A stretch of 41,265 bases of DNA. Source: a virus. The notes beneath the pieces were generated by a model. It did not search any database. It was not told where the DNA came from and was given only the letters and a program-made list of their open reading frames with translations. Both the position numbers and the translations under genes were made by a program. Positions 9,033 through 41,265 of the stretch are shown here, in pieces; position 1 is the stretch's first letter; each line of letters opens with the position of its first letter. The stretch spans positions 1-41,265 of IMG/VR virus record IMGVR_UViG_3300045988_152616; one strand, 5' to 3'.

Positions 9033-9260
9033 TTAATCGGTAACAAACCAATCCTCCGCAATCAAGTCCTCCGCTGTGGGCTGCCACCCACGGCGGGGGC
9101 CTCTTGCTGCCAAACTAGTAATCACACAGCAATCCGGCGTGTTGGTCGGGAATACCTTGAGGTCCGCCCCGCGATATGTATTTCGCCACGCTTCCCTTGT
9201 GATGTACTGTTTGTCCGCATGTCTTGCCTTAATTGCATCGGAGATAATCATGCTTTTCAC
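9033..9260 (-). CDS. DUF2829-like protein (family of Thoeris anti-defence Tad2)
   Basis: 75 aa. ITREAWRN near the N-terminus and GWQPTAEDLIAEDW at the C-terminus match my recollection of the DUF2829 signature (..R.GW.. / W.P...DLLAEDW). Confidence 0.5.
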   Translation of the reverse strand: MKSMIISDAIKARHADKQYITREAWRNTYRGADLKVFPTNTPDCCVITSLAARGPRRGWQPTAEDLIAEDWFVTD

Positions 9261-9515: not shown

Positions 9516-9676
9516 AGTGACCACCTCCTTTCTTTCGTTTTGCGTAAGCTTATGATAGCACCCATCCGCCTGCTTGTCAATACGTTTGGCGAAAGTTTTT
9601 TCGCAAAACGAAAGATTTTTCTTGCGTATTTCTGTGCGGTGTGGTATTATAGGTACACAGCGATGGAGGTGCAAAG
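9516..9676. promoter_or_regulatory. Lysis-lysogeny switch: divergent promoters plus operator repeats
   Basis: Minus-strand TTGACA (9575-9580), 17 nt, TATCAT (9552-9557). Plus-strand TTGCGT (9623-9628), 17 nt, TATTAT (9646-9651). The 12-mer CGCAAAACGAAA occurs at 9603-9614 and inverted at 9532-9543, and a GCGAAAgtttTTTCGC palindrome lies just upstream of the 9603-9614 copy, overlapping its first bases. Confidence 0.65.
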
Positions 9677-10303
9677 ATGAGTGCTCTGTCAAAGATACTT
9701 AAGAAGCGAAGGAAAGAACTCGGCTTAACATTGGCACAAGTTGCAGACGCAGTAGGCGTTACTGAAGCTACAGTGCAGAGATGGGAAAGCGGAAACATTA
9801 AAACAGTTAGATACGAAAAGTTGGCCCCGTCGTCGAGTCTTCTTGGCGTGTCTCCGGCTGATCTCATGGGTTGGAGTAGTGACGACGATCTCCCGTCTAA
9901 TATCTCTCGGATAGAACCCATGCAAAAAATCCCCCTTGTGGGTCAGATTGCCTGCGGGACCCCCATCCTGGCGGAGCAAAATATAGAGGATTACGTTGAC
10001 CTGCCCGGACACATTCGGGCGGACTTCGCCCTGACCTGCAAAGGGGAAAGCATGATCGGAGCCGGGATTAGGACCGGAGACATCGTATATATCCGAAAGC
10101 AGGAAGAAGTAGAAAATGGCCAAATCGCCGCCGTCATGGTAGGAGGTGACGAGGCAACACTAAAACGAGTCTATACCAAACCAGGGGTTGTCCAGCTGGT
10201 GGCGGAAAATCCAAATATAGCCCCAGCGGTTTTTATAGGCAAAGAGGCTGAACAAATTCATATCATTGGACTGGCCGTAGCGTATACACATGTACTAGAT
10301 TGA
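9677..10303 (+). CDS. cI/LexA-like repressor (XRE HTH + S24 peptidase)
   Basis: 208 aa. N-terminal HTH LTLAQVADAVGVTEATVQRWE. C-terminal GESM...TLKRV Ser/Lys dyad region. Confidence 0.9.
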   Translation: MSALSKILKKRRKELGLTLAQVADAVGVTEATVQRWESGNIKTVRYEKLAPSSSLLGVSPADLMGWSSDDDLPSNISRIEPMQKIPLVGQIACGTPILAEQNIEDYVDLPGHIRADFALTCKGESMIGAGIRTGDIVYIRKQEEVENGQIAAVMVGGDEATLKRVYTKPGVVQLVAENPNIAPAVFIGKEAEQIHIIGLAVAYTHVLD

Positions 10304-10317
10304 TTGGAGGAACAACA

Positions 10318-11241
10318 ATGAAGAAAGAGAGAGCGATTCCCATGATCCTTAGTGTTGCACTTGCGTTGTGTTTGGTCGGGTGTGGCAATGACGCGCCGCC
10401 GGAAGAAGAAGCAGAGCCGGAAGCCACACAGCAGTCCAACGCAGAATCTGAACGAATAAAAACAAATGACTTTAATAATGGTGCGTCAGAATACTATATA
10501 AAAAATTTGTGGTTTTCTGTCCCCTCATCCTGGAGGATGGATAACGAAAGGAACCCAGGGACAACATACTTCTACCCACCGTCTGGGAACGGACTGGAGC
10601 TTCTTATGGTGGTGTTTTCAGAGTCAGAAGAATCCATATTGAAACAAGAAAGTGTGGATGGACTTATTTCCGGTTTGGAAGAAGGAAACGAAAACTATAA
10701 ATATACTTCAAGTGCATTTGATAAAAATCTGATTGGCGAAAACTATGCGATAATAAAATATTCTTCCACCATAAAAGGAAATGACTATAACCTCTCAATG
10801 GTATGCTTTGACTGTGATGGAGGATTTGTATATTTCTTGCTCGGTGAATTATCTGATTCTTCCTATGATTATTCTTCAGATTTCAAAAATATAGTTGATT
10901 CTGTCGCAATATCGTCTGTTCCGGCGAAGACAGAACCGGAAGAAAAAAATGCGACCACAGGTGAGATCAACGCCTTAGAGAAAGCGTTGAGCTATCTCAA
11001 TTACACATCCTTCTCCCGTTCCGGTCTGATTGACCAACTCGAATACGAAGGGTTTTCTACCGAAGAAGCTACTTACGGCGTAGATAACTGCGGCGCAGAC
11101 TGGAACGAGCAAGCTGCCAAGAAAGCGCAAAGTTACCTTGATTATTCGTCCTTCTCCAGACAGGGGCTAATTGACCAACTTGTGTTTGAGGGATTCACGC
11201 AGGAACAGGCAGAATACGGCGTGTCTTCCGTCGGGTACTAA
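10318..11241 (+). CDS. Lipoprotein with two C-terminal Ltp-type repeats (superinfection-exclusion-like)
   Basis: GGAGG before ATG 10318. Signal peptide with lipobox LVGC. Duplicated SYL(N/D)Y(T/S)SFSR.GLIDQL..EGF..E.A.YGV resembles TP-J34 Ltp repeats. Confidence 0.75.
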   Translation: MKKERAIPMILSVALALCLVGCGNDAPPEEEAEPEATQQSNAESERIKTNDFNNGASEYYIKNLWFSVPSSWRMDNERNPGTTYFYPPSGNGLELLMVVFSESEESILKQESVDGLISGLEEGNENYKYTSSAFDKNLIGENYAIIKYSSTIKGNDYNLSMVCFDCDGGFVYFLLGELSDSSYDYSSDFKNIVDSVAISSVPAKTEPEEKNATTGEINALEKALSYLNYTSFSRSGLIDQLEYEGFSTEEATYGVDNCGADWNEQAAKKAQSYLDYSSFSRQGLIDQLVFEGFTQEQAEYGVSSVGY

Positions 11242-11295
11242 CTTCATTCCCCCGCCGCCGAGGGCGGCCAAAAATAAAAAACGGAGGAAAACAAA

Positions 11296-12111
11296 ATGAA
11301 AAAGAGAGCCCTAATTATCCTACTCGGAGGAGCGTTTGCCCTGTCCTTGTGTGCTTGTGGAGAAAACGATACCACAAGTCAAGAACCCTCTTCCCCGCCT
11401 GACCTCACCGGAGTATGGACGCAGGTGGGAGCAAGTGAAGGCGACAGCTACCAACAGGCAATCATCTCAGGAAACACCATCACCATCAACTGGGTCGATC
11501 CGGAAAGCACGGCTCTTTACTGGGCTGGCACCTTTGCCGCACCGACCACAACCGACGAGCCATACACCTGGACCTCCGAGAATGATACGTCAAAAACCGG
11601 CACGGCCCTTCTGGCAGCAACGAGCGAAACGAAAGATTTCACTTATGAGGACGGGAAGATCACCTACGAAGTTTCTGCGCTCGGGAGCACAACTACTGTG
11701 TCCCTGGAGAAGACCGGGGATGCCCCGGCTGTGATCGAGGAACCAGAGTCAAATTATGAAGTGACAATTGACAGTGCATCTATCGAGGCTAATCCCTATA
11801 CGGGAGACCGGGCCCTTATCGTAAACTGCACATTCACGAACAACAGCGAGGAAAATGCGGCGCCAGATGTTGCCCTTCATATCCAGGCATTCCAAGACGG
11901 GATTGAATTGGATCCAGATTTCTTTGATTCTTCGTCCTATGATTCAATGTCCGCATCAAGGGAGGTGCAGCCGGGTAATACCTACGAATTCCAGAAAGCA
12001 TTTGTACTGACAAACGAGACGTCCTCAATTGATGTCTCTGTGAGCGAGTTGTTTGCTCTTGACGGTGGAACACTCGCGGAAAAGACCTTCGATCCGGCCA
12101 CTCTCGCATAA
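11296..12111 (+). CDS. Lipoprotein with DUF5067/DUF4352-like C-terminal beta-sandwich
   Basis: 271 aa. Signal peptide with lipobox LSLCAC. C-terminal ALIVNCTFTNNSEE... pattern. Confidence 0.6.
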   Translation: MKKRALIILLGGAFALSLCACGENDTTSQEPSSPPDLTGVWTQVGASEGDSYQQAIISGNTITINWVDPESTALYWAGTFAAPTTTDEPYTWTSENDTSKTGTALLAATSETKDFTYEDGKITYEVSALGSTTTVSLEKTGDAPAVIEEPESNYEVTIDSASIEANPYTGDRALIVNCTFTNNSEENAAPDVALHIQAFQDGIELDPDFFDSSSYDSMSASREVQPGNTYEFQKAFVLTNETSSIDVSVSELFALDGGTLAEKTFDPATLA

Positions 12112-12203: not shown

Positions 12204-12226
12204 ACCAAAGATAGGAGGAATTGCAA

Positions 12227-13345
12227 GTGAAATGCAAAAAATGCCATACTGGATTGCCGGAAAAGGCGAAATACTGCCCTCAGTGCGGGGCAAAGATCAC
12301 CTCCGGCCAGGCCACGAAATCCCGGGGGAACGGGACCGGAACCGTATACAAGCGGGGAAAAACGTGGACCGCCGCCAAAACCCTGGGGTACTACGTTTCG
12401 GAGGACAAGCTGCACCGGGAGGTGCGAACCAAGGGAGGCTTTAAGACCAAACGGGAGGCGTTAGAGTATCTCTCCATCCTCGGGCGAGAGCCAGCAACGA
12501 AGGCCCGCACGTTCCGCCAAGTGTACGACCTGTGGTTTCCGACCCACCAAGCAAGCGCGTCCACGATGGGATGCTACCAAGCGGCAATGAAATGGTTTAA
12601 GCCGGTGTGGGGGTATAAACTGGATTATATCACCATAGAGGACCTGCAAGACTGTATGGACGATTGCCCCAAAGGCAAGAGAACTCAGCAGAACATGAAA
12701 GCCGTTTGCGGGCTGATCTACAAATACGCCATCCCACGGGGCCTTGCACGGCTCAATCTGGGCGAGTATTTGCGTGTAGGGGGTACGGATACCGGCCCGA
12801 GGGAAGGCCTGCCAGAGAGCGCTGTAGAGGCCCTAGAGAAGGCGCAGGACACCGTACCGGGAGCGGACTACGTTTTGTGTCAATGCTATTTGGGATACAG
12901 GCCATCGGAACTGCTCACCCTGGATGCCTCGCAATACGACCGAAAGGAAAAGGTGTTCCGGTGGGGAATGAAAACCTCCGCCGGGAAAAACAGGGTTGTG
13001 ACCATCTCCCCCAAAATACAACCTGTTATTGACAGGCTTACTGCCAACAAAATTGGAGGGCCGATTTTCTGCCGCCAGGATGGAGGCGAGATGCCGATCG
13101 CAGAATATCGCGAGTTGTTCTACTCCGTCCTGGATGCAATCGGAGTGGAAAATCCTGTGAACGAATTCGGGTACCACCGCTATACCCCGCATTCTTGCCG
13201 CCACACATTTGCTACCCTGCTTAAACGAGTTAAGGGGTCAGACAAGGACAAGCTGGAATTGATAGGGCACACATCGAATGAAATGCTACGGCATTATCAG
13301 GACGTTGATTTGGAGGATTTGCGGAAAATAACCGACGCACTTTGA
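12227..13345 (+). CDS. int: Tyrosine recombinase/integrase with N-terminal zinc ribbon
   Basis: GTG 12227 lies 8 nt after GGAGG (the ORF track starts at TTG 12221). CKKCH...CPQCG N-terminus. C-terminal HSCRHTFATLL ... GH ... LRHY catalytic pattern. Confidence 0.9.
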   Translation: MKCKKCHTGLPEKAKYCPQCGAKITSGQATKSRGNGTGTVYKRGKTWTAAKTLGYYVSEDKLHREVRTKGGFKTKREALEYLSILGREPATKARTFRQVYDLWFPTHQASASTMGCYQAAMKWFKPVWGYKLDYITIEDLQDCMDDCPKGKRTQQNMKAVCGLIYKYAIPRGLARLNLGEYLRVGGTDTGPREGLPESAVEALEKAQDTVPGADYVLCQCYLGYRPSELLTLDASQYDRKEKVFRWGMKTSAGKNRVVTISPKIQPVIDRLTANKIGGPIFCRQDGGEMPIAEYRELFYSVLDAIGVENPVNEFGYHRYTPHSCRHTFATLLKRVKGSDKDKLELIGHTSNEMLRHYQDVDLEDLRKITDAL

Positions 13346-13426
13346 ATTTGGCCTACTGCATACAAATTGCACACAATAGAGCCGCAAACCGTTGGGGTTC
13401 AAGGGATTTGGCATGTATGGGGTTCA

Positions 13427-13471
13427 AGAGGCCTTGAGTTCGAATCTCAACACTCGGACCAAAAGTTCCGA
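13427..13471 (+). other. 3-prime 45 nt of a tRNA-Pro(GGG)-like gene (anticodon loop to CCA); no 5-prime half present
   Basis: Loop ATGGGGT, stem half TCAAG, variable AGGCC, T-arm TTGAG-TTCGAAT-CTCAA, acceptor half CACTCGG, A73, CCA. No CCGAGTG acceptor partner upstream. TGGGGTTCAAG is duplicated at 13393-13403. Confidence 0.6.
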
Positions 13472-13474
13472 AAA

Positions 13475-13517
13475 CTAGCCTAAACAGGTGGTTTTCGGAA
13501 CTTTTTTGTTGCTCACT
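13475..13517 (+). terminator. Intrinsic terminator following the tRNA fragment
   Basis: GTTCCGAAAAC (13475-13485) pairs with GTTTTCGGAAC (13501-13511), followed by TTTTTT. Confidence 0.7.
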
Positions 13518-13571
13518 TTTTCAAATTGATTTTCGAAAAATTTGGCTATTGCATACCTATTGCATACACGG

Positions 13572-13600
13572 AAAAGAGGCCCACGGAGGGCCTCTTTTAT
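13572..13600 (-). terminator. Terminator (bidirectional hairpin) ending the accessory cassette
   Basis: AAGAGGCCC-ACGG-AGGGCCTCTT sits directly after the XRE gene stop, with T-runs on both strands. Confidence 0.65.
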
Positions 13601-13800
13601 TTTTCGATCAGCTCGCGTGGATCCACTTCTAAAATATCCGCGATGGATAAAAGATTTCGAGCGCTCATGTTCCCGGCCTCGCTTGTCCCCAGCTCGACCC
13701 GCCTGATCTGGCGGATGTTGACGCCGGAGGCATCTGCAAGCTGTTGTTGGGTCATGCCCGCATTTGTGCGGGCGGATTTCAGCTTGTTCTCCATAAGCAT
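13597..13800 (-). CDS. XRE-family HTH regulator (67 aa; ORF track extends to 13827)
   Basis: HTH MTQQQLADASGVNIRQIRRVE. ATG 13800 overlaps the upstream TAA (TAATG). Confidence 0.75.
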   Translation of the reverse strand: MLMENKLKSARTNAGMTQQQLADASGVNIRQIRRVELGTSEAGNMSARNLLSIADILEVDPRELIEK

Positions 13801-13913
13801 TAGAGGGCATGGTATATGCTGTCGCACATGGATTCAATTTCGTCGTTTTCCCAGCCGCTAAAATCTGGCTGCTTGGAGTAGGTTTCGCTCCTGTCGATGA
13901 TGTACATTGACAT
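13800..13913 (-). CDS. Hypothetical micro-protein (37 aa)
   Basis: ATG 13913 preceded by AGGAGG. MSMYIIDRSETYSKQPDFSGWENDEIESMCDSIYHAL. Confidence 0.45.
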   Translation of the reverse strand: MSMYIIDRSETYSKQPDFSGWENDEIESMCDSIYHAL

Positions 13914-13926
13914 TTTATATTCCTCC

Positions 13927-14172
13927 TTAGTATCTCCAGATCCGGAAGTGTGGATCTTCGTTGACGCTCTTCCCGGTGCAGTACTTGTACACCTTGCTTC
14001 CCATGGGCCAGGTTGCCATGGCAATCAGTTTGCCGCCGTCGTACAGCTCTAGGGTGTCCGATGTCCGGCCGTATTTCATGGCGACCTCTCGGATGTTCCC
14101 GAGCTCGGTGTCAAATTCGGCCATGTTGGAAAATTCCCCGTTGTCATAGCGCTTGACGTGGTAGGTTTTCAT
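13927..14172 (-). CDS. Hypothetical protein (81 aa)
   Basis: ORF track. ATGA overlap with the upstream gene. Confidence 0.6.
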   Translation of the reverse strand: MKTYHVKRYDNGEFSNMAEFDTELGNIREVAMKYGRTSDTLELYDGGKLIAMATWPMGSKVYKYCTGKSVNEDPHFRIWRY

Positions 14173-14534
14173 TCGGCTCCCTCCTTATTGGCACGATCCC
14201 ATTCTCTTGTCAGAGTGTACGCCGGAAAATCCAGCCCCCGGCAGACAACGATGCGCCCAAGAACGGTCTTCCCTACGGTGGCCTCCATGACCTCTGCCTG
14301 CTCCCGGGTTATAGATCTGAGCCACAGCCGTTCGGCCATCCGGTGGAGGTGGGACCACAGGGCATCAGCTGCCTGTTCTGCCGTTAAAGGCTTCCCGGTG
14401 AGGATGTATTTCTCCCCGCGCGCCAATTCGGCCTCGTAGAACTGTTCTACCTTCATCCAGTCTGCCCCGAGGGCGTCCAGGATGTCCAGAATTTGAGTGG
14501 TGTGCTTCTGGCCCAATATCTCATGAATTTCCAC
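14169..14534 (-). CDS. Hypothetical protein (121 aa)
   Basis: GTG 14534 lies 6 nt after GGAGAG. No motif recognised. Confidence 0.6.
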   Translation of the reverse strand: MEIHEILGQKHTTQILDILDALGADWMKVEQFYEAELARGEKYILTGKPLTAEQAADALWSHLHRMAERLWLRSITREQAEVMEATVGKTVLGRIVVCRGLDFPAYTLTREWDRANKEGAE

Positions 14535-14553
14535 GTCATTCTCTCCTTCCTTT

Positions 14554-14853
14554 TCAAGCGGCCACGAACTCGCCGGTCATGTTGTCAACGTACCCGATCT
14601 TCTCAGTGCGCTTGCGGCTCCAAGCGTTGGTGTAGACAGCGACCTCAACATAGGTGCGGCTCTTGCCAGCCTTGTTCCAGTCATTCACGCGGACCTTGGT
14701 ATTCCAGTCAATGTCTGCGGCAACAGTCTCGGCGGTGTTGATGGCCTTGGCCAGGGCCCAGGCGGCGCGGAGTGCAGTGCTCATGCTGATGTTGTTAGTG
14801 CGGCGGATGTTCCAGGCGTTTACCATAATCTCATGCATGTTGTACTTTTTCAT
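14554..14853 (-). CDS. Hypothetical protein (99 aa)
   Basis: ATG 14853 after GGGAGG. First gene behind the dedicated promoter. Confidence 0.6.
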   Translation of the reverse strand: MKKYNMHEIMVNAWNIRRTNNISMSTALRAAWALAKAINTAETVAADIDWNTKVRVNDWNKAGKSRTYVEVAVYTNAWSRKRTEKIGYVDNMTGEFVAA

Positions 14854-14894
14854 TTCGCTTACCTCCCGGGGTTCTCCCCCTTGATCTTGTCTAT

Positions 14895-14964
14895 ATTATA
14901 GGCTAATTTTAGCCTATTTTCAATTCATAAAGTGCCCAAACATGACCGGCTAATTTTGTCCTAT
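14895..14964 (-). promoter_or_regulatory. Sigma-70-type promoter with embedded palindromic operator, plus a second operator-like copy
   Basis: Minus-strand TTGAAA (14918-14923), 17 nt, TATAAT (14895-14900). Perfect 18-bp palindrome TAGGCTAATTTTAGCCTA at 14899-14916. Related CCGGCTAATTTTGTCCTA at 14946-14963. Confidence 0.7.
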
Positions 14965-14968
14965 TTGC

Positions 14969-15010
14969 ATAAAAAATAGCCCCCGATCTGAGTGGTATCT
15001 CAGTCGGGGG
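14969..15010 (-). terminator. Intrinsic terminator ending the late/lysis operon
   Basis: Minus strand: CCCCCGACTGAG-ATACCA-CTCAGATCGGGGG, then CTATTTTTT, 8 nt after the stop at 15018. Confidence 0.75.
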
Positions 15011-15017
15011 TTTTGTG

Positions 15018-15281
15018 TCAGGTTGTGTGTTTTACGCGGTCCATGACCTCCGCCCGCTTGGCATCGTTGAAACGGCCCAGGTCTCCCACCAGGTAACCGG
15101 TGATCCGGCGGATGCGCTGGAACGGCACCCGTTCAAAAACGGGAGTGATCCCGAATTCGTCGGGATTGCCGGTGCGGCGGATGGAGATCTCGACAACCTT
15201 TCGTCCTTCTTCCTGCTCCATCATGTCGATGGCTGCCTGGACAATCTCCTCCGGGATATTGTCTGGGTTGTGGATAGTCAT
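15018..15281 (-). CDS. Stand-alone NrdD-type glycyl-radical domain protein (87 aa)
   Basis: ATG 15281 forms an ATGA overlap with the endolysin stop. The C-terminus RIRRITGYLVGDLGRFNDAKRAEVMDRVKH resembles the class III RNR glycyl radical motif (RRVCGYLG...FN.GK..E...RVKH, recalled from T4/E. coli NrdD). Confidence 0.6.
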   Translation of the reverse strand: MTIHNPDNIPEEIVQAAIDMMEQEEGRKVVEISIRRTGNPDEFGITPVFERVPFQRIRRITGYLVGDLGRFNDAKRAEVMDRVKHTT

Positions 15282-16057
15282 TTGAGCAACCCCAGTCTGC
15301 CGAGGATGGCCACAACCTCGTTGCGCTTCATGTGGCGGACGGGAGAGGAACCATCGGAGACGCCGGCCTCCTGTGCCTTTTCCCACCAACCTTCCTTCTT
15401 GGACCAATCATCATCCGGCAGGGTTGCCGCATGGATCTCGGCCTTCTTTACCAGTTCGTACGCCTGCTCGTTGGTCATCTCGGACAGCAGTTTGTTGATA
15501 TCCATATCCTCATCTTCTCCTTTCAGTCGGGCGTTCACACGCTCTGCGATTTCGCCATATTTGCCAAATAAGTAGTTGCCAGGGCACGACTTGCCCTTGT
15601 CCGTGGTGTACCGGTGGGGCACCATGTTGCACACAGCCCAGTTTCCGGTAAAGGCCGGGCAATACTGCTTGCCTTCCTTCCAGATCAATTTCTTGATGCC
15701 GTTTCGCTGGCAGATGTCCACACAGAGGTCGATCAAGCTCTCGAAGGCGGCTTCCGTACATTCATAAGGCTCCTGGTAGCTCTGGATACTGGACACCTCG
15801 ATGGTCACCACCTGGTGATCCACCTTGTGGGAGCAGCACCAGGCCCGGTTTTCCTCGAGTACGTACTGTCCGATGCGGCCATCCGGCCCGATACCGTAAT
15901 GGCTAGAGGCTTCGGAGGTTTGGAACACCTGCCCGCATCCCTCCACGCTGCCAGGACCGGCCATAGTGTGGATGGAGATGCCCTTGATTGTCCCCTGTCT
16001 AGGCTTGGTGCAGTGAGGGGACAATTTCGTGTATACAACTAGCTTACTATTACTCAC
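15278..16057 (-). CDS. Endolysin, N-acetylmuramoyl-L-alanine amidase (Amidase_2/PGRP) with C-terminal binding domain
   Basis: 259 aa. GISIHTMAG...SSHYGIGPDGRIGQYV..ENRAWC pattern. Confidence 0.88.
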   Translation of the reverse strand: MSNSKLVVYTKLSPHCTKPRQGTIKGISIHTMAGPGSVEGCGQVFQTSEASSHYGIGPDGRIGQYVLEENRAWCCSHKVDHQVVTIEVSSIQSYQEPYECTEAAFESLIDLCVDICQRNGIKKLIWKEGKQYCPAFTGNWAVCNMVPHRYTTDKGKSCPGNYLFGKYGEIAERVNARLKGEDEDMDINKLLSEMTNEQAYELVKKAEIHAATLPDDDWSKKEGWWEKAQEAGVSDGSSPVRHMKRNEVVAILGRLGLLK

Positions 16058-16268
16058 CAGCGCTCACCTCCTGTTTTACTTCGGGCAACCCCGCAACAGA
16101 AGTCAGCAGGGAAAGAACCCCGGCCAAAACTGCGGCGGATACCGCCATAATCCAATTGACATCGGACAGCACAGCGGCTGCACCGATGGTGGCAACGGCA
16201 GTCTGAGCCATAGTCTTGATGGCTCTTATCCCGGCAGCCTTCCACCAGAGTTTCCATTTTTCACTCAT
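16050..16268 (-). CDS. Holin (LL-H/phiLC3-like pattern)
   Basis: 72 aa with two hydrophobic helices. IRAIKTMAQTAVATIG...LTSVAGLPE. Immediately upstream of the endolysin. Confidence 0.8.
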   Translation of the reverse strand: MSEKWKLWWKAAGIRAIKTMAQTAVATIGAAAVLSDVNWIMAVSAAVLAGVLSLLTSVAGLPEVKQEVSAGE

Positions 16269-16600
16269 TTCTTCACTTCCTCTCCGTGCATTGGGAGCCG
16301 GTCTATCTCTTCCATAACGGTTTTGAGATGCCCGTTCCCACCAAGATTTTTGTACGCTTGGTACATTTCAACCAAATTTTCCTTCTCGTCCAGAGTGATG
16401 TGCCCTCGGATGATGTAGCACTCGCCGAGGTACCGGACCCGGTCGATCATGAGCACTTTTTGCGCTTCCAGCAGCGCGTCCAGTTTTGTGCTTGTCCCTT
16501 TCTTTGCGGCCCATCTGTGGTTGAGGATTGCTACGATGATGGCGGATAGGCCGGAGGAACCGAGGGCTACAGATACAAGCGTAATCAACATTTCCATCAT
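16265..16600 (-). CDS. Membrane protein of the lysis region (111 aa, N-terminal TM helix)
   Basis: MMEMLITLVSVALGSSGLSAIIVAIL, then a soluble domain. ATGA overlaps on both sides. Confidence 0.55.
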   Translation of the reverse strand: MMEMLITLVSVALGSSGLSAIIVAILNHRWAAKKGTSTKLDALLEAQKVLMIDRVRYLGECYIIRGHITLDEKENLVEMYQAYKNLGGNGHLKTVMEEIDRLPMHGEEVKK

Positions 16601-16938
16601 CCGGTTGCCTCGTAAACCCTTACGGTAACTGTCTGCGCTGATACAACCGGAAATTCGCTTATATCCATGTCCTCTCCTGGGACATTATAAAACGTTGCAA
16701 TCGTTCCGACCCCACTTGCGTTCAACAATACATTGTAGGTAGGATCTGTAAATGCAATAATAATGCTGCCTTTAGCGGCTGAGATGGTTTGACCAGAAAC
16801 ATCCAAATGTTTTTCGATGATAGAGCCGTTTTCTATTGTCGAATAATAGCAATAAACCACTGCCGGACCATACTTAAAGGCAACTGAGACATTCTCCGCG
16901 TTTCCTCCACTCCCCGCAACACTAGGATTCTGAATCAT
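16597..16938 (-). CDS. Hypothetical beta-rich protein downstream of the tail fibre (113 aa)
   Basis: ATG 16938 after AAGGAGG. Visibly lower GC than the flanking sequence. Confidence 0.55.
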   Translation of the reverse strand: MIQNPSVAGSGGNAENVSVAFKYGPAVVYCYYSTIENGSIIEKHLDVSGQTISAAKGSIIIAFTDPTYNVLLNASGVGTIATFYNVPGEDMDISEFPVVSAQTVTVRVYEATG

Positions 16939-16949
16939 AACGCACCTCC

Positions 16950-19889
16950 TTAGCTCAACGGTTGAATCACGACATACACAGTCAGATTGCTTGTAGGTAC
17001 AGTCTGGCAGGTAAATGTCAAACTGTTTGTAGCCTGCCCAGTACACATGATCCCGGCCTCATAATACGCAGACTGAGATGCAATAGCGGGAGTTGGCGTA
17101 ATGAGTTGTGCGGTCTCAGTTGCAGACACGCCGGAGACGGTGACGGTTTGGGTGTTGGAGGACCAGCCAGCGGCGGTGAGGGTGATCGTGCGAGCGAGGG
17201 GTTTGAGAGCGTCTACGTATTGTTTTGTGGCAGCCTGAAGGTCTTCAGTCGGTTCGCCATTCAGAGTGAGCGCCCCCGTCAACGTCCCCCCGCTTAACTG
17301 CAAATACCTTTCATCCGCCTGCTCCTGAGTGAGACCGCTTTCAGGCGCATCCACAGCACCAACCGTGTTGTCTGCGGTGAAGCCGAGGAGTTGGCCTTGG
17401 GTTCCGGTGGGTTCTTTCATTAGCTTATCGCCACTAGTCTGACTAGATCCACCAACGAACACATCACCAGCGAACCATGCGTTGCCGTCCCAATCGAGTG
17501 TGTGAGCGTTAGAACGGGTATTTTCAGAATTGCCGTTGCCCACAATGTGAGCATATGTGTCGGAATTATCCTCAATATTGTATTTACCTTGGACGTGTTG
17601 GTTCTCTCCAGACGCAACAGTAGCTGCCCCTTCGGCATGAGAACAATCTCCGGATGCAACAGTATTCGATCCTTCGGAATGGGCTTCGTTTCCGGATGCA
17701 GTGGTAAACATCCCCTCAGCATGGGACGCACGCCCAGATGCCTCTGTTACATCCCCCTCGGCGTGAGAATTCATACCAGATGCGATGACCCGCCACCCTT
17801 CGGCATGGGAATATTCTCCAGTTGCTTCATTGTGTTCATAATCATTGAAAATTTCCCCAGTAGGATCAGATTGGTCTGCCTTGCCAACAGGGTTTCCCCA
17901 CTCTGCGCCACTTGCTCCCCTTTTAAGAATCTGCCCCTCAGTGCCCCCTTCAGGCAATCCGCTTGGGGCGTCGGACCATTCTTCACCTGTGGAGGTTTTG
18001 GTGAGGACTTGGCCGGTGGTGCCGCCGGAGGGGTTTTCTAAAAACAAACTAGAAAGTTCGCTTCTATCCGAGACAGCTATTCCTGAGTCATCAATGTAAA
18101 CAACATAGAAATTCAAGTCGTCTATATCTGTAGGAGAACTGCCTAAATTATGAATGCAAGCGAACATTGCATAATCCTTTTTGATTACTGCGGGATAGAG
18201 CACCAATTCATCGTCAAACACACAATAAATCGCATAATTATTTTGATACGCTTGAAAAATTTCTGATATAGTTTTGTCCTGACTCCCGGTGGCTGAAACC
18301 CTTACCACCATCACCGGCTTATCACCCCACGCAGCCCCATCAGCAGACTTATAGAGCATCTGCCCTTCGGTGCCACCATCAGGGAGACCACTAGGCGCGT
18401 TTTCCCACGAACTTCCATCCGCTGTCTTGGTCAGCACTTGCCCCGCCGTTCCGCCAGTGGGGTTCGGGATGGCTCCCACATCCTCAGCGGACGGAGTCCA
18501 GGTATCCGGTCGTGCGCCAACATCCTCCGCATCCAGTGTAACATCGGCGCTGAGCGCATGTCCGTTAACAGTTCGGCTGGTAGGCACATAGTCCATCGGG
18601 GGTAACTGAGCGCTCGGAACCTTCCCGGAGCCGTCCAGGGATGCAACGCCGTTGGCTTGCCCCTTCTGCCCCATCGGGATATAATTCCCGACCAGAGAGA
18701 CGGTTATGGTATCGTCCACATACTCTTTGGACGCCGCGTCTGTGTTGTCGGTGGGCTCCGCTAGGTTGGTTATCTTATGACCGCCCATCTGGAGCGCCCC
18801 GGTCATGGGCACAGAACCGTCCGACATGAAATCGCCGGAGCCCGTGCCGTTAGACCCATTGTAAACCTGGAATGTACCGCCGGTCTGCCCGTCAGTGAGA
18901 TATACGGTATAGGTATCCGTGGTACCAGGCGCGCCAGTGCCGGACGTGCGCTCGATACGGTCTACGCTCGCGCCGGTGGGGCCAACCTCGCCCTGTTCGC
19001 CCTTGGGACCGATGACGGAGCCCGCGTTGATGGGATCCCCGGCAGAGAGGGTGATCACCAGGTCGCCGTCCTCGTTGACGGTTGCGTTGGTAACGCTCAC
19101 GCCCTGGGGGCCAGTTGCGCCAGTTTCTCCGGTGTCGCCCTTGTCGCCCTGGATCCCCTGAGGCACCCCAATCACAAACAGCAAATTCCCCTCGGGAGAG
19201 GTTGTTTTGGTCACGGTAACGGAGGATCCCGCCGGGAGCGTCTCTCCTTCCATGTTCATGTTTTCGATGTAGGTCTTCGCCTGCTCTGCCTCTGCGGCCG
19301 CGTTTTCGGCGTCGGAGGCGGAATTCGCGGCAGAGGACGCGGATGTCTCCGCCTCATTGCGGGCGGTCTCGGCATCTGTCTTTGCGTCGCCTGCCTGAGT
19401 CGCCGATGTTTGTGCAGCAGTAGCACTCCCAGATGCCTGGGTGGCTGCTGTTTGGGCCTGCCCGCTGGCCGTTTCGGCCGCCGTTTTCGCGGTCTCTGCG
19501 GCGGCCTGGGCAGCAACAGCAGCGTCCCTTGCGCTGGATGCCTGCCCCGCCGCTGTCTGCGCCTGCTCCACAGAGTCGCCGATGGTGCCGGCGGCGGCAA
19601 CGGATTGATCCCTCGCCGTTTCCGCTGCGTCCTGGGCGTTTTCCGCCGCGGTCTGTGCCGCCGCTGCGCCCTGTCTGGCTGCCTCAGCCTGGGTGGCGGA
19701 TTGGCCAGCCTGGGTTGCTGCGGTTTGGGCGGCTGTTACCTGAGACGCAACTGCATTTTGGGCGTACCCCTTGATAAGCTCCCCTTTTATGCTGGATGTG
19801 GTTGCATTTTGGGAGACAACGAGCAGATCATCGTCCCCCATGGCGGAGGCTGTCGGCAAGTCGGTAATCGCCTTTGGTACATTAGCCAT
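16950..19889 (-). CDS. Tail fibre / receptor-binding protein (979 aa)
   Basis: Ala/Gln-rich coiled region, collagen-like GDKGDTGETGATGPQG, internal ~49-aa repeats, and SHAEG repeats reminiscent of YadA-head/Hep_Hag repeats. Confidence 0.85.
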   Translation of the reverse strand: MANVPKAITDLPTASAMGDDDLLVVSQNATTSSIKGELIKGYAQNAVASQVTAAQTAATQAGQSATQAEAARQGAAAAQTAAENAQDAAETARDQSVAAAGTIGDSVEQAQTAAGQASSARDAAVAAQAAAETAKTAAETASGQAQTAATQASGSATAAQTSATQAGDAKTDAETARNEAETSASSAANSASDAENAAAEAEQAKTYIENMNMEGETLPAGSSVTVTKTTSPEGNLLFVIGVPQGIQGDKGDTGETGATGPQGVSVTNATVNEDGDLVITLSAGDPINAGSVIGPKGEQGEVGPTGASVDRIERTSGTGAPGTTDTYTVYLTDGQTGGTFQVYNGSNGTGSGDFMSDGSVPMTGALQMGGHKITNLAEPTDNTDAASKEYVDDTITVSLVGNYIPMGQKGQANGVASLDGSGKVPSAQLPPMDYVPTSRTVNGHALSADVTLDAEDVGARPDTWTPSAEDVGAIPNPTGGTAGQVLTKTADGSSWENAPSGLPDGGTEGQMLYKSADGAAWGDKPVMVVRVSATGSQDKTISEIFQAYQNNYAIYCVFDDELVLYPAVIKKDYAMFACIHNLGSSPTDIDDLNFYVVYIDDSGIAVSDRSELSSLFLENPSGGTTGQVLTKTSTGEEWSDAPSGLPEGGTEGQILKRGASGAEWGNPVGKADQSDPTGEIFNDYEHNEATGEYSHAEGWRVIASGMNSHAEGDVTEASGRASHAEGMFTTASGNEAHSEGSNTVASGDCSHAEGAATVASGENQHVQGKYNIEDNSDTYAHIVGNGNSENTRSNAHTLDWDGNAWFAGDVFVGGSSQTSGDKLMKEPTGTQGQLLGFTADNTVGAVDAPESGLTQEQADERYLQLSGGTLTGALTLNGEPTEDLQAATKQYVDALKPLARTITLTAAGWSSNTQTVTVSGVSATETAQLITPTPAIASQSAYYEAGIMCTGQATNSLTFTCQTVPTSNLTVYVVIQPLS

Positions 19890-20043
19890 CCTCTTTCACC
19901 TCCGCCGCGCCCTTTCCGGCCTCAGCATAGGCCATCCGGAGCAATTCTCTGGCCCGCGCCATGATCTCCACCTGTTCCCCGGATACGGGGATAGCGGAGA
20001 TATATTTAAACGCCTGGTCTAAATATTCCTGCATCTTCGTCAT
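19882..20043 (-). CDS. Hypothetical protein (53 aa)
   Basis: My own translation: MTKMQEYLDQAFKYISAIPVSGEQVEIMARARELLRMAYAEAGKGAAEVKEDG. The stop overlaps the tail-fibre ATG (ATGGCTAA). Confidence 0.45.
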   Translation of the reverse strand: MTKMQEYLDQAFKYISAIPVSGEQVEIMARARELLRMAYAEAGKGAAEVKEDG

Positions 20044-20044
20044 G

Positions 20045-21607
20045 TCAAGAAATCACTCCTTTGTCCTTTAGGGCTTCCTTTATTTTCTGTACCTGGTAGA
20101 TCAGCAATGGGATGAATTCGCCGTATCGGATTGCGTATCGGTATCCGCTTTCTTTGGTTTCTTCATCGGTCCCCCAGGATTTAATGAACGCCGCGAAATC
20201 CTTTGTTGGGATGTTCAACTCCGAAAGGGTTTCCTCAAGGTCCTGTGCAATAATCCCCATGTGGGTACGGTCGCTTTGCCCGTCGATGAATTTGAACGAC
20301 ACCGGGCGCAGCGCGTCGAACACAGGCAGGAACCGATCCAGCCCGTATTCCACGTCTTTTTTGAAGTTGAGGTCGGACGTGTTTATAGCCGCGTTGACGG
20401 AATACACATCCCCCCACCGAACTGTGCTGCGCCCGAGTGTTACAGACCCATCGGAACTGGGCGTCGGGGAGCCGCTGAACGAAAACCGGCCTGTGGACGT
20501 TGTGCCAAACGAGCAGTTTGTGGTATCCACCCACCAGTTGCCGGCAGATGTCATGCGCATACCGCCGCGATTTGTGACGAATTCCAGGCCGACGCCGGTG
20601 GTCGTGGGTGTAATTTCGATGGAGCCAACCGTGCTCCCTCCCGACGCCAACAGTTCCACCGTTCCGCCGCGCAGTATGGATGCCTCCACGGTGCCGGTTT
20701 GGATTTTTGAGCCGTCAATGTATGTGGTGCCCCGGTAGCTCCACGCCTCTACTTTATCCTCTGCGTTGTTGGCAGTGTTGTTGGCCGCGTTAGCCAAGCT
20801 GTACGCTCTGTTTGCCGTACTCTGCGCGTCATTGATATCCCCCTGGACGGAGCTGGACAGGTCGGAAAATGTAATGGCCCCTGTGAGATTCAGGCGGTCC
20901 GCGTCAATCTGGCCAGTTTTGATACAGGCCCCATTGATGGTAGTTGTACCGGAGGACAAGCCGGTAAACGTAACGAGGCCATTCATTTTGATGGTTTCGC
21001 TAGAGATTGTCACATCTCCCACTTTAAGGGAGATTGTGGATGATGTTGACCCGTTGGACACATCAAGGGTTATTGAGTCCACCTTGACGGAAATGCTGGA
21101 TATCTGCCCCTCCAAATCCTCTGCGATACCCTCTACCTGTAGGAGGATTTCGCTGGCGGACTTGGATATCATGGACCGCGTCCTGGCCAGTTCCCGATCG
21201 TACTGCCGGCGCTCCATGGATTCATAGGGATACTCATCATCCACCTCGTCCAGGTCCGGCGCGGAGATCTCGGAATTGTACAGGCGAGAAAACGACATGT
21301 TTTCGTTGGCGACAACGGAATAGATCCCGCCAACGACAACGCCGTCCCCGATCTCCGCCGCCGGGTCCATCAGGGCCTCCCCAGCGGTGTAGGGCTGGTA
21401 TTCCACGTTCTGCACAGCGGCAAGGATGGAATTCGCCATGGCCTGGGACGCCCAGGCGCAGGTGACCTCCAGCGTTCGCCCCGTGTCATTCCCTGCGGTG
21501 TAATAGGTCTCGCTGTCTACGCTGAGATTCACGCGAGAGATGTTGGACGGGATGTCACCGATGTCCAAACTGCCTGCTCGGGATCCAAGAAAAATAGAGT
21601 CAGACAA
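20045..21607 (-). CDS. Tail spike/baseplate protein with C-terminal intramolecular-chaperone (Peptidase_S74-like) domain
   Basis: 520 aa. C-terminal TSDLNFKKDVE...LRPVSFKF...HMGIIAQDLEE pattern. Confidence 0.75.
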   Translation of the reverse strand: MSDSIFLGSRAGSLDIGDIPSNISRVNLSVDSETYYTAGNDTGRTLEVTCAWASQAMANSILAAVQNVEYQPYTAGEALMDPAAEIGDGVVVGGIYSVVANENMSFSRLYNSEISAPDLDEVDDEYPYESMERRQYDRELARTRSMISKSASEILLQVEGIAEDLEGQISSISVKVDSITLDVSNGSTSSTISLKVGDVTISSETIKMNGLVTFTGLSSGTTTINGACIKTGQIDADRLNLTGAITFSDLSSSVQGDINDAQSTANRAYSLANAANNTANNAEDKVEAWSYRGTTYIDGSKIQTGTVEASILRGGTVELLASGGSTVGSIEITPTTTGVGLEFVTNRGGMRMTSAGNWWVDTTNCSFGTTSTGRFSFSGSPTPSSDGSVTLGRSTVRWGDVYSVNAAINTSDLNFKKDVEYGLDRFLPVFDALRPVSFKFIDGQSDRTHMGIIAQDLEETLSELNIPTKDFAAFIKSWGTDEETKESGYRYAIRYGEFIPLLIYQVQKIKEALKDKGVIS

Positions 21608-22674: not shown

Positions 22675-25600
22675 TTAGATCATGGGCGATTTCGCGGTCC
22701 GACGGGCGTTTCCGTTCAGTGCCGCTCGAAGGTCGTTGAATGTTGCTCGGTAGAGTTCCTTGCCATTGATCACCAGCGGGATCTCCACTTGGTAAACTTC
22801 CCGGGTTGCGGCCCCTCTTGGCACCGCTGCTGTCGCTGCTTGGGGCAGGGCGGATGGGGTGTTGAGGGAGGGGCGAGTGACGAGGGATGCACCGTACTCA
22901 AATTGAGACTGTACTTTCTTGATTGTCGCTGCGTTTGCAACAGAACGAGCCATGTTTTTAACAGACTTAACGGCATCATTTGCCGTGGAGTCAACGCCAA
23001 CCACAACACCCTCCGTAATAGGTTTGCCGACCTTATCGCGAAAATCCTTAGACGGAGAGTTTATCCTAAGCTCGCTTCTTGCTGCCGAAAGCGCGTTGCG
23101 TGCCATTTGGCGAAGTTTTGAGTTCAACGCATTCACATTGATTGCTCCAGCGATTGCGTCGTTAATGGCGTAACCTATAACAGTGAAATCTCGAACCATT
23201 TGATATCCGACGCTTCTGGCGGTGTTTATCATGGAAACCATTTGGTCAGTAACGGTTCCTACGGCAGAGCTAATGCCACTCGCTACTTCTCCGTCCGCAT
23301 CTGTACCAATTGCCGGGAAATTCCCTCCGGCGACGGCAGAATCGCCAGTGGATTTTGTTCCAGCAATTAGCTCACTCATAGAGGAGTAAACCGTTGGTGC
23401 ACTACTATCGATTCCTGACGCAGTGTTTTGTCCTATCGTCGTCCCCGTTGCCGGGAAGTTAGACGATTGCACGGTAGCATCCGCCGTCGTTTTCGCTCCT
23501 GTCACTACGTTAGCGGCGGCATTATTTACCGTTCCGGACTGACTGGTAATCCCCTCGGCAACGCCTTGCGCAGCTGTTGCACCGGTCTGTTGCGGCTGTC
23601 CGTCGTTCATCGTCGCGTCAAGGGTTGTCTGCGCTCCGTCCGCCACAGAGGCGGCCGCCATGTTAACCGTCCCCGCATTGGTGATAATCCCGTTAGAAAC
23701 CAAGAAATCCCATGCGGCGCCAATCTGCGCGGCGTCCACACCGGGCATAAGTTCTTGCATCAACTGCATGTAGATTTGCTGGGCGGAACCGGTAAGATGG
23801 TAAGCGCCTTCGTTCATTCCGGTTCCGATCGCTGTCGGAATCTGAACGCCGCCCTCTCTCGCTTCATTGACCTGAGTCTCCAATGCAGATCGCTGTTGCT
23901 CTAACAGACTTGCCCAACCATTCCGTTCGGTTTCAGACATTTGGTTCCAGTGTTCCGCAATATAGACCACCATGTTCTGATAGTCTGCCTGCATCTTAGC
24001 CACATTTTCCTCCAGAGCGGCCTGGTTATCCCCGGATGCTTTTACGATATTGGCGGAGGACTGTGCAATGGCTTGGTCTAGTGCAGCCATGTCGCCCGTG
24101 GTTGCATTGGCGATCTGGTTATAGGTTTCCAAGGTCTGATTGTAGCTGTCCCATGTCCCCTGGGCCGTGTTCAAGTTCTGCTCGCTCTGAGCAAGGGCTT
24201 CATTTGCTGCATCCAACTGGATTCGTAAATCAGAATATTGTTTTGCGGTCAATCCACCTGTATCCGCAAGCATACCCTGTAAAGTATTTACTTGCTCCTG
24301 CGCCACATTGTAATCCCTGGTAGCCTGAGTCAAGTCTTGCCACGCCTGCAACTGCTTAGTAAGCGCTTCTTCGTATGCCGGTTGGATAGCATTTAAGGCG
24401 GCTTCCTGCTTCCGCGCAAAAATCAGATCATCGATAGCGTCGGACACTTTGTATACCGCTCCGGCCTCACTTTCAGACGCCGAAACCGCCCCAGGGACCT
24501 TATTGTTTATGTAGTCTGCAAGGTATGCGGCTCTCTCTTCGTATCCCTCGATAACACGCCCATTAGCATCCGTGATACTCTGGAGTTCACCAACATACTG
24601 CTCCACAATACCCATCTCACTTTGGATGGATGCCATAGATTCACCGACGGACTCTTGTAAACTATTGAAGGAATCTGCATGTTCGTTGATCTGGTCAGTA
24701 GTTTCCTGGATGCGATTTGCAAACTGCTCCGAATAACTGATGTATTCCCCTTCGCTCTGACTGAGCGTCACAATCGCCGCCGCAACACCGGCTGCCGCTG
24801 CGCCAAGCAGAACAAACGGATTCGTAAGCGTTGCGAGAAGGCCCAGGCTAGAAACCAACTGGCCAATTTTGGACACAACCGAGGCAGCAGCAAGAACGCC
24901 GATTGCGGTAGCAACACCCGTAATGGCAGGGATAGCGATATCACTGCTCTCTGCAATATCCAGGAAACCGTTTACCAAGTTGGCCGCAAATTCTTTCACC
25001 TTTGCCACCATAGGAGACAGGGCATCTCCCGCTCGGGCCAAGGCGTCGTTTAGATCGCTAGACGCTTTGTTGGTCTCTACGATTGCAGAATTGGTGTTCC
25101 TCCATTCCTCCGCTGCCGAAACAAGACCTTGACGTGACAACTCCTTTAAGACCAGATTGGCTCTCTCTGTTTCGCTATTTGCGCTCTCTAGTGCAGCGTT
25201 AAACTCATCCTCGCTGGTACCCGCCCAATTGAGCACGTCGGAAAATGTCCCGGTTGCCTTTGACACCCTAATTGTCTCATTTACGGATTCAGCTAAGGAA
25301 TCGATTGGAATAGAATCCCCATAAGTCGCCCAAGCGCCAATGGTCCCGTCTATCATCTTGGTCAGGTCCTCTTGCGAAAGACCTAACGCCTGTAGGTTAG
25401 ACAAAGCCGTTGCACTGGACTGCTCATCTCCAAGCACGGAGTAAAATTGCTGGTAGCTCTGCGCTGTCTGTTCGGCGGTGTACCCCGCTTTCTGGCTGGA
25501 CACCTCCAGAGATGCCATAATCCGGCGATACTCAGAGGTAGACTCTACAAGGTCTGCAATGCCGCTAACGACGGACTGAATCCCGTCGGAGAGCATATCC

Positions 25601-40802: not shown

Positions 40803-41265
40803 TCAATGCCTCACGGCTTCCCCCCTGGTTATGTAATGATGGATCCCAGGTGCGCACTCGTTCCAGCGATTTTCGTCAAAATTTTGCACCTCTACGGTCT
40901 CGCCGACGCGATAGACGAAACTGCTATCATAGTCGCTGCAAACCTCATTCCCGGCTGGTGTCCCATCCAATTCTGTAATGCTAACCACAACGGCTTTATT
41001 GGCCCGGCATTTTCTACTGGTAGAAGAGGATCTTTTTGCATCAGTCGGTATTTTAAGCTTGACAATTTTCCCATCGGCTTTCTTGAATCCTATGTACTCC
41101 CCTACTTCGGGGCAGGAGAATGGATAGAATAGATTTTTAGCCGAATCTATGTATTTTGCCCAGCTCATGACGGCCCCTCTCATGTCGGCCCCGCTCATGT
41201 CGGCCCCGCTCATGTCGGCCCCGCTCATGTCGGCCCCTCTCATGTCGGCCCCTCTCATGTCGGCC
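40803..41265 (-). CDS. Pentapeptide-repeat protein, repeat plus C-terminal domain part (continues from nt 174..1)
   Basis: (ADM[RS]G)n, then a C-terminal domain ending [22 protein letters not shown]. This resembles the DUF5758-type domain I recall fused to phage pentapeptide proteins. Confidence 0.8.
41166..41265. repeat. Tandem 15-nt coding repeat (6 units plus 10 nt; CTCT/CGCT variants)
   Basis: Read directly. Same unit and phase as nt 1-100. Confidence 0.95.

Follow-up and report, generated by a model that had tools for sequence, protein, structure and literature searches.

A putative autorepressed anti-defence operon between the lysis genes and attP of a temperate phage of human-gut Oscillospiraceae

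In the complete circular genome of a temperate phage (IMG/VR record IMGVR_UViG_3300045988_152616; its whole length of 41,265 nucleotides was analysed and is referred to below as the window), five coupled open reading frames (ORFs) on the minus strand, g1 to g5, encode proteins of 99, 121, 81, 37 and 67 residues. They run from position 14853 to 13597, between the terminator of the late operon and attP. This cassette is a genuine operon that is autonomous and has been shuffled horizontally. By analogy with operons that couple anti-CRISPR genes to genes of their associated regulators (acr-aca), we lean towards reading it as an autorepressed, early-expressed accessory operon, the most likely role of which is anti-defence. 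Within this reading we infer the binding and repression by g5, the early expression, and the anti-defence nature of the cargo. Autorepression by g5 through two palindromic operators, inverted repeats 1 and 2 (IR1 and IR2), is considerably more likely than any functional label attached to the cargo. In the search for new immune inhibitors from phages of human-gut Oscillospiraceae, the products of g1–g4 are, nevertheless, good candidates.

According to the mechanism proposed here, host RNA polymerase would fire the near-consensus promoter of the cassette upon DNA entry or induction, giving a burst of g1–g4. The g5 protein, translated last off the same mRNA, would accumulate, and its dimer would bind IR1 as well as IR2, located 47 bp upstream. 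Transcription would then drop to a low level, which would also be maintained in the lysogen. The products of g1–g4 would represent interchangeable small cargo, probably binding and inhibiting elements of host immunity, such as CRISPR-Cas or restriction systems.

The cassette is grouped with the Aca-controlled anti-defence loci because of its regulatory design. A kept promoter and helix-turn-helix (HTH) gene combined with swapped cargo, as found in the window and its relatives (Table 1), are the signature of Aca-regulated acr-aca operons (PMC9410906, PMC13551039), and this favours the anti-defence reading. The absence of any defence or toxin match for the cargo was also counted in its favour. 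The original prediction, made from the sequence of the window, had described an autonomous accessory module in the slot between lysis genes and attP and had guessed at abortive infection, exclusion, or a toxin–antitoxin-like function. The description of the module holds, whereas the guess is not favoured in view of the operators in the promoter, the kept HTH gene with swapped cargo, the cassettes that lack g1, and the presence of an Ltp exclusion gene elsewhere in the phage.

Promoter, operators and the terminal HTH gene

The cassette is preceded by a sigma-70-type promoter of its own (coordinates of this and all other features are given in Table 2), TTGAAA-17-TATAAT, matching the consensus at 11 of 12 positions, which bears out the near-consensus promoter claimed earlier. 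Promoters of this level occur twice in the 41-kb window, compared with 0.2 expected in random sequence, and the other one is located at 9580, upstream of a cro-like gene. The palindrome IR1 fills the spacer that separates the -35 from the -10 element and overlaps the latter, whereas its imperfect copy, IR2 (core GGACAAAATTAGCC at 14961-14948), directly follows the late terminator. Both were absent from the description given in the original prediction. The two sites form a direct-repeat family (D1) with a spacing of 47 bp, and the 14-nt operator core, with up to two mismatches allowed, is present in these two places only in the window, against 0.16 expected. IR1 is the predicted binding site of the g5 dimer, and a dimeric HTH protein located there would occlude RNA polymerase.

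In an alignment of seven related loci (A3), the late terminator, IR2, the -35 element, IR1 and the -10 element are almost unchanged, with the core of IR1 being invariant. At the IR2 site, three of the sister cassettes (L001–L003) carry a better palindrome, TGGGCTAAAATTAGCCCA. A promoter similar to the consensus is found in every g1-containing cassette in which an HTH gene follows g1, together with a palindrome in the spacer and usually a second copy upstream; the exceptions as to the palindrome are L083, where a scan found none, and L140, in which the repeat is imperfect.

The sequence of the operator varies with that of the recognition helix of the HTH protein encoded at the end of the cassette. 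Helices VNIRQIRRVE and VNIRQIQRVE are accompanied by operators GGCTAA..TTAGCC and CGCTAA..TTAGCG, respectively, FNIRQVQKLE and INLRQIQKM by CGCCAA..TTGGCG, and INLRQVQKI by CGCCTA..TAGGCG. Helices of the type (V/I/F)N(I/L)RQ are thus paired with GGCTAA, CGCTAA, CGCCAA or CGCCTA half-sites. Those of the type VDQAxxSRWE are paired with ATATCATA or TATGTAT, VDQAVISRWE being found with ATATCATA..TATGATAT and VDQAHISRWE with TATGTAT..ATACATA. Of the evidence that can be had short of an experiment, this match between operator and helix speaks most strongly for regulation of the operon by its own terminal HTH protein.

The 5' leader contains a hairpin of the form GGGG-N4/5-CCCC that abuts the Shine-Dalgarno sequence GGGAGG. 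Its predicted folding energy (-10.1 kcal/mol, z -2.0) is weak taken alone. The hairpin is kept across cassettes with different types of HTH and operators (L074, L086, L093, L121, L124 and L140), with compensatory variants GGGA/TCCC and GGGC/GCCC, and may be an element that stabilises the mRNA or tunes translation. Structured leaders bound by Aca proteins are reported from other acr-aca operons (PMC13551039). No match above threshold was found with Rfam between 13300 and 15100.

Intrinsic terminators delimit the cassette on both sides. The late one, which follows the gene of a stand-alone C-terminal domain of the anaerobic ribonucleotide reductase NrdD (NrdD-C), insulates the cassette from late transcription and is kept in the seven related loci. 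The cassette also has the terminator of its own that had been predicted; it looks bidirectional and, because its T-run is longer on the plus strand, may in addition end transcription from the integrase gene, though only when the genome is circular, as does sib of phage lambda.

Shuffled cargo in a kept regulatory frame

Homologues of g1, 61–94% identical, are present in phages whose terminase, portal and capsid genes are unrelated, as well as in genomes of Oscillospiraceae (Pseudoflavonifractor, Gemmiger and uncultured relatives). In 47 loci the g1 homologue is followed by 1 kb or more of sequence; 44 of them, representing 11 of the 12 distinct architectures, have an ORF encoding an HTH that ends no further than 1 kb downstream. 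In the sister cassettes the terminal HTH protein is 75–92% identical to g5, and the sister phages share the lysis and NrdD-C genes. The same promoter, operators and HTH gene (product 85–92% identical) also occur without g1, in L001, L002, L071, L111–L116 and L150. Conversely, an identical five-gene cassette adjoins at least three different sets of lysogeny and early genes (L130, L133 and L134). Concerning the conservation across phages that was to be checked for the original prediction, the promoter, operators and HTH gene are kept in related phages, but the genes between them are exchanged.

Table 1. Genes located between the promoter and the terminal HTH gene in the window and in sister cassettes (numbers are protein lengths in residues)
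Locus	Genes between promoter and HTH gene
Window	g1-g2-g3-g4
L003	g1-g2-79
L145	g1-41-63-81-g2-g3
L002	g2-149-PAPS reductase (PAPS_reduct + DUF3440)-ParB_N protein
L071/L111	66-g2-162-66
L112	72-g2-180-162-164
L001	64-119
L150	65-g2
L140	g1-53-g3

Nine cargo arrangements accompany an HTH of the g5 type and five more accompany other HTH types. Together, these 14 cassettes carry about 20 families of cargo, 13 of which occur once. The cargo proteins mostly comprise 37–180 residues and have no recognised domain, with the exception of the pair consisting of the PAPS reductase (417 residues) and the ParB protein (205 residues) in L002. Some of them are extremely acidic, with the net charge reaching -14 in the 64- and 79-residue proteins and the pI of g4 being 4.07; DNA-mimic inhibitors are often extremely acidic as well. 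In the 41-residue ORF of L145 (1988-2113), the N-terminal 22 residues of g2 are joined, at a common DV/FDYI-like motif, to the C-terminal 25 residues of the 66-residue cargo family. Judged by its sequence, this chimera is a scar left directly by recombination of one cargo gene with another. The g3 gene is also found in L140 and L145, where it directly precedes the HTH gene.

Scans of IMG/VR and of JGI metagenomes for the promoter pattern returned the known loci and added only one incomplete contig. Most of those HTH matches in IMG/VR that had about 60% identity were not used, being domains of larger proteins in different surroundings (for example, proteins of 261 residues).

Many g1 cassettes do not end with a minimal HTH protein. 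In L082, L086, L093, L117 and L123 the last gene encodes a protein of 159–172 residues, in which a conserved N-terminal domain with no match in Pfam (TNREAYVFGWVFGRLNA...) is fused to the HTH. Such fusions recall those of a regulator with an inhibitor, as in AcrIIA1. An island that may be related is present in Flavonifractor phage Cormatin (L143, ON453905.1), a cultured phage of F. plautii. Its three genes (24151-25384), opposed in direction to their neighbours, encode a 115-residue hypothetical protein, a 164-residue regulator with an HTH 62% identical to g5, and a 136-residue hypothetical protein. This island could serve as an experimentally tractable relative of cassettes of this kind.

Cassette genes and their surroundings

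The tight coupling of the genes that had been noted earlier was found as gaps of 19 nt (g1–g2) and 13 nt (g3–g4), and as overlaps of 4 nt (ATGA, g2/g3) and of TAATG (g4/g5). A strong Shine-Dalgarno sequence precedes each of g1–g4, and the same five products were called by independent gene callers in at least 24 contigs from human-gut metagenomes. The G+C content of the cassette is 0.536 compared with 0.543 for the window, and its G+C at third codon positions (GC3), 0.65–0.78, resembles that of the neighbouring genes, in agreement with the earlier impression that the cassette is similar to the phage core. With dN/dS values of 0.10–0.27 for g1, 0.15–0.26 for g2, 0.15 for g3 and 0.07–0.24 for g5, these four are real genes under purifying selection. 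No diverged homologue of g4 was found, and none outside this cassette; the coding status of g4 is given by the AGGAGG ribosome-binding site located 8 nt upstream of its start, by a GC3 of 0.68, and by the gene calls only.

The g1 family comprises 207 clusters at 90% identity, as well as 170 clusters at 50% identity from a profile search of 1.84 billion representatives, all of them small and unnamed; no informative fused domain was present in the ten longer relatives that this search included. The g2 family consists of 49 clusters, all metagenomic and unnamed, and that of g3 of only four clusters among 5.8 billion proteins.

As had been anticipated, only the last gene is recognisable. The g5 protein matches HTH_3 of Pfam (7.9e-10) and is the sole cassette protein that belongs to a known family. 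Its nearest solved structures by sequence are the controllers of restriction–modification (R-M) systems C.AhdI (6.8e-5) and C.BclI (6.7e-3), with weak matches to antitoxin models of the HipB, HigA and MqsA types. No Aca-named structure was present among its matches in the PDB, even at E up to 10, and no Aca-named model in NCBIfam. Structures of Aca1, Aca2 and Aca10 have been published (PMC8633003, PMC8434428, PMC9410881).

No significant match for g1–g4 was found in Pfam, PHROGs, PADLOC, NCBIfam, or the sequences in the PDB, the last of which were searched both with individual sequences and with two profiles (A1 and A2). The best sub-significant match of g1 was phrog_28198, a family of unknown function (E 0.0018). 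A match to the AcrIIA3 model that appeared in these searches (E 0.14, 12 bits compared with the cut-off of 70) was treated as noise. In PADLOC-DB v2 (5027 models), nothing matched g1–g4 or nine other cargo proteins, g5 matched only generic HTH components, and the PAPS reductase of L002 gave a match to DndC/BrxP at the domain level only (6e-8). No gene of a restriction endonuclease or methyltransferase was present in any cassette examined. Searches with tblastn found no g1 in GenBank phages or in PLSDB plasmids and no g2 in GenBank phages. The region 13300-21000 of the window had no nucleotide match in GenBank phages, and peptide strings from g1–g3 returned no paper in a full-text literature search.

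Structure prediction and fold searches, which had been proposed as a check, yielded confident AlphaFold2 models of two of the proteins, with no match to known folds. The model of g1, with a mean predicted local distance difference test (pLDDT) score of 89.8, is a helical hairpin packed on a four-stranded β-sheet, and that of g2 (pLDDT 89.9) is mainly helical. Foldseek found no match for either of them in the PDB at E up to 0.001, with the best match of g1 having E of 0.14 and a template modelling (TM) score of about 0.3. In BFVD no match of g1 reached the same threshold, the nearest one being an uncharacterised protein of a gut Myoviridae phage (3.8e-3). A relation of g1 to ParE or RelE, considered on account of the two helices and the sheet, was dropped, since no structure of RelE, ParE or HigB was present among the 50 best PDB matches listed.

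Table 2. Features of the cassette and its surroundings in the window
Feature	Position	Strand	Description
g1	14853..14554	-	99 residues, basic, pI 9.85; first in the operon wherever present; most widespread cargo gene
g2	14534..14169	-	121 residues, GTG start, acidic; cargo gene recurring in many cassette combinations
g3	14172..13927	-	81 residues; rare cargo gene
g4	13913..13800	-	37 residues, very acidic; orphan micro-ORF, in this cassette type only
g5	13800..13597	-	67 residues, single-domain XRE-type HTH; predicted Aca-like autorepressor of the cassette promoter
Promoter	14923..14895	-	Sigma-70 type; -35 TTGAAA (14923-14918), -10 TATAAT (14900-14895)
IR1	14917..14898	-	Operator palindrome ATAGGCTAA-AA-TTAGCCTAT, 20 bp (9+2+9)
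IR2	14964..14945	-	Imperfect upstream operator copy, ATAGGACAAAATTAGCCGGT
5' leader hairpin	14862..14880	-	
Late/lysis-operon terminator	15010-14980	-	Intrinsic hairpin, -21.9 kcal/mol, z -5.66; U-run to 14971
Cassette terminator	13598-13572	-	Hairpin, -19.0 kcal/mol, z -5.19
attP core	~13417-13461	+	3' part of tRNA-Pro(GGG), 45 nt, identical to the tRNA-Pro end at integrated relative L145
Integrase gene	12221-13345	+	N-terminal zinc ribbon; on the other side of attP from the cassette
Lysogeny block	9677-12111	+	CI (HTH_3 + Peptidase_S24), Ltp lipoprotein and DUF5067 lipoprotein, followed by the integrase gene
Tad2-like gene	9033-9251	-	72 residues; PF11195, 4e-8, 34 bits (cut-off 25)
NrdD-C gene	15018-15281	-	87 residues; NCBIfam 5.9e-11, Pfam NRDD 2.2e-6
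15-nt tandem repeat array	1-100 and 41170-41265		CATGTCGGCCCCTCT, with CCCGCT variants; at least about 13 copies

The order of genes on the minus strand is tail fibre, holin, Amidase_2 endolysin, NrdD-C and the cassette, with the slot being bounded by the late-operon terminator on one side and by the attP core on the other. An exact match to the T-arm and CCA of the tRNA is present at 13436-13461, and ARAGORN found no complete tRNA at this site of the window. The relative L145 is integrated at tRNA-Pro(GGG), with host genes of a NUDIX protein and of a Na+/H+ antiporter located beyond. Because the lysogeny genes are placed across attP, the cassette becomes the outermost gene block of the prophage, adjoining the tRNA. 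In the lysogeny block, the gene of the Ltp-type surface lipoprotein (PF07553, 7.7e-34), a member of a superinfection-exclusion family, is co-oriented with those of CI and of the integrase, and exclusion cargo expressed in the lysogen is more obviously to be sought in this block. The Tad2-like gene, belonging to a known anti-Thoeris family, lies in the early operon downstream of the cro-like gene; its presence implies that the phage already invests in counter-defence.

The NrdD-C gene closes the lysis operon and is kept in all sister phages. The C-terminal ~35 residues of its product correspond to the glycyl-radical loop of NrdD (RRITGYLVG...FNDAKRAEVMDRVKH). The protein could be a "spare part" similar to GrcA/YfiD, repairing oxygen-damaged NrdD in a strict anaerobe, a role of which we know no description for NrdD.

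Several repeats accompany these features. A perfect 15-nt inverted repeat (13461-13475 / 13491-13505) adjoins the attP core, and a tandem direct repeat, CTATTGCATAC in two copies, is located nearby at 13546-13567; these repeats may be arm-type sites of the integrase or sites of accessory factors. Because both ends of the window consist of the same 15-nt tandem repeat, the contig closes on itself within the array, which could represent iterons belonging to a replication origin or else, within the ORF at 40803-41258 (minus strand), encode a pentapeptide repeated in frame. A complete tRNA-Met (CAT) is also encoded by the phage (36896-36971, minus strand), between ORFs of the minus strand.

Alternative functions and comparison with known systems

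The position of the cassette at the extreme end of the prophage, beside attR (tRNA-Pro), would also suit prophage-expressed defence or superinfection exclusion, with steady, low, autoregulated levels of g1–g4 in lysogens blocking or aborting other phages. The promoter of the host type and the terminators that the cassette owns fit this explanation, as does the possibility of homeostatic expression in a lysogen through autorepression, and prophage defence hotspots, too, have a fixed slot in which the cargo varies. The content of the cassettes makes defence unlikely, as the roughly 20 families of cargo in the 14 cassettes give no match in PADLOC, save that of the PAPS reductase, and the proteins are mostly small, lack enzymatic domains, and in several cases are highly acidic. 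A recognisable exclusion gene, encoding Ltp, is instead carried by the lysogeny operon across attP, and the cassette promoter equals that of the cro-like gene in its closeness to the consensus, which is suitable for a burst on entry. A type II toxin–antitoxin or addiction module in the order of HigB–HigA, with g1 (or g4) as the toxin and g5 as antitoxin and autorepressor, stabilising the prophage or aborting infection, appears very unlikely. It would account for the HTH gene found within 1 kb after g1 in nearly all of the 47 loci, for the basic character, length of about 100 residues and two-helix plus β-sheet topology of g1, and for the weak similarity of g5 to antitoxin models, and palindromes in the promoter are typical of antitoxin autoregulation. 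However, g1 and the HTH gene are not obligately paired, with zero to five unrelated genes placed between them, and because the same HTH gene and operators occur without g1, a g1/g5 pair is disfavoured. Furthermore, g5 is a bare HTH of 67 residues without an extra toxin-binding segment, g1 matches neither a solved toxin structure significantly nor any family in Pfam, NCBIfam or PADLOC, and g4 has no relatives.

We regard as similarly improbable a regulator of the phage life cycle comparable to arc-ant of the P22 immI region, which the cassette resembles, with g1 acting as an antirepressor or switch that is silenced by g5 and affects induction or immunity rather than host defence. An autonomous operon near the late genes, predicted to be tightly repressed, in which g1 is conserved, always first, and linked to an HTH gene in many phages, agrees with such a role. 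On the other hand, CI carries the autocleavage domain Peptidase_S24, so that this phage needs no antirepressor, and g1 contains no Ant, KilA or Bro domain. The identical cassette is found beside at least three different lysogeny and early gene sets, and because g1 cassettes span unrelated phage backbones, g1 would need to act on many different repressors; the remaining cargo, moreover, is freely exchangeable.

The reading of the cassette as an acr-aca-like anti-defence operon has to be weighed against several observations as well. None of the cargo proteins is similar in sequence to known anti-CRISPR or anti-defence proteins in NCBIfam, Pfam or the PDB, the models of g1 and g2 lack a fold match, and membership of g5 in any named Aca family is not detectable, with an R-M controller as its nearest solved relative. 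Autorepression through palindromes in the promoter is typical of toxin–antitoxin and controller-protein systems, too. The g1 gene is unusually conserved, basic in its product and tightly linked to the HTH gene, which could reflect a specific partnership between g1 and the HTH. Finally, known acr genes adjoin only about 15% of genomic aca-like genes (PMC9410906).

We can speculate, with a confidence that falls a little short of even, that g1–g3, and possibly g4, found new anti-defence families with new folds, and that the HTHs of the g5 and VDQA types represent new Aca families. Most of the characterised anti-defence genes that we know of come from phages infecting Proteobacteria or a few Firmicutes such as Listeria, Streptococcus and Staphylococcus, and we know of almost none from Clostridia, the strict anaerobes dominant in the human gut. 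The locus offers a conserved regulatory frame, in which a promoter and two operators are combined with an HTH gene at the end, and a clear code between operator and HTH over several cassette types. It also offers a few small proteins that evolve under purifying selection and belong to no known family, the two for which models were made having no known fold either. If the anti-defence reading is true, the frame could be used as bait with which to draw many further candidates for immune inhibitors out of gut viromes, the new Aca families could be anchors for mining anti-defence genes in gut Clostridia, and single cargo proteins could show which of the defences of Oscillospiraceae are important. 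If the cassette instead serves to protect the lysogen, it would represent a new and compact module of defence.

Among known systems, the R-M controllers C.AhdI and C.BclI are the closest solved relatives of g5. Such C proteins are small dimeric HTHs that bind palindromic boxes in their own promoter and time the expression of downstream genes. Unlike in R-M loci, the cassette and its relatives have no endonuclease or methyltransferase gene, and the g5 gene is placed last rather than first. HigBA modules share with the cassette a small basic protein encoded first, an XRE-type HTH downstream and palindromes in the promoter, but in the cassette the partners are neither obligately paired nor adjacent, the HTH has no toxin-binding extension, and g1 does not resemble known toxins.

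The acr loci of Listeria, reportedly placed close to the lysin end of the prophage as well, also belong to temperate phages of Firmicutes. They have a conserved palindrome in the promoter, the HTH domain of AcrIIA1 autorepresses the locus, and the companion inhibitors vary (bioRxiv 10.1101/787200). A promoter palindrome, an HTH encoded within the locus and varying companions are thus common to both, whereas AcrIIA1 consists of two domains, an HTH and an inhibitor, g5 is a separate minimal HTH located last in the operon, and the sequences of the two are not similar.

The cassette differs from the acr-aca operons in that g5 is not detectably related to the named Aca families, that no known Acr is present in the cargo, and that the hosts of the phages are gut Oscillospiraceae, from which we know of no characterised Aca family. 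Its architecture matches theirs. Aca regulators are mostly single-HTH proteins of about 60–65 residues encoded at the end of short operons, and their promoters are near consensus, with IR1 placed within the core promoter and often a similar IR2; they repress a promoter the strength of which would otherwise be harmful (PMC9410906). Aca-regulated operons carry many unannotated small genes and include PAPS reductases related to DndC/SspD, which are linked to evading defence based on DNA modification (PMC13551039). The cassette, too, is carried by a mobile element and is a short operon that has the gene of a small single-domain HTH protein at its 3' end, it has a near-consensus promoter with one palindrome in its core and a similar second one nearby, and its regulator is conserved among exchangeable cargo that, in the sister cassette L002, includes a PAPS reductase.

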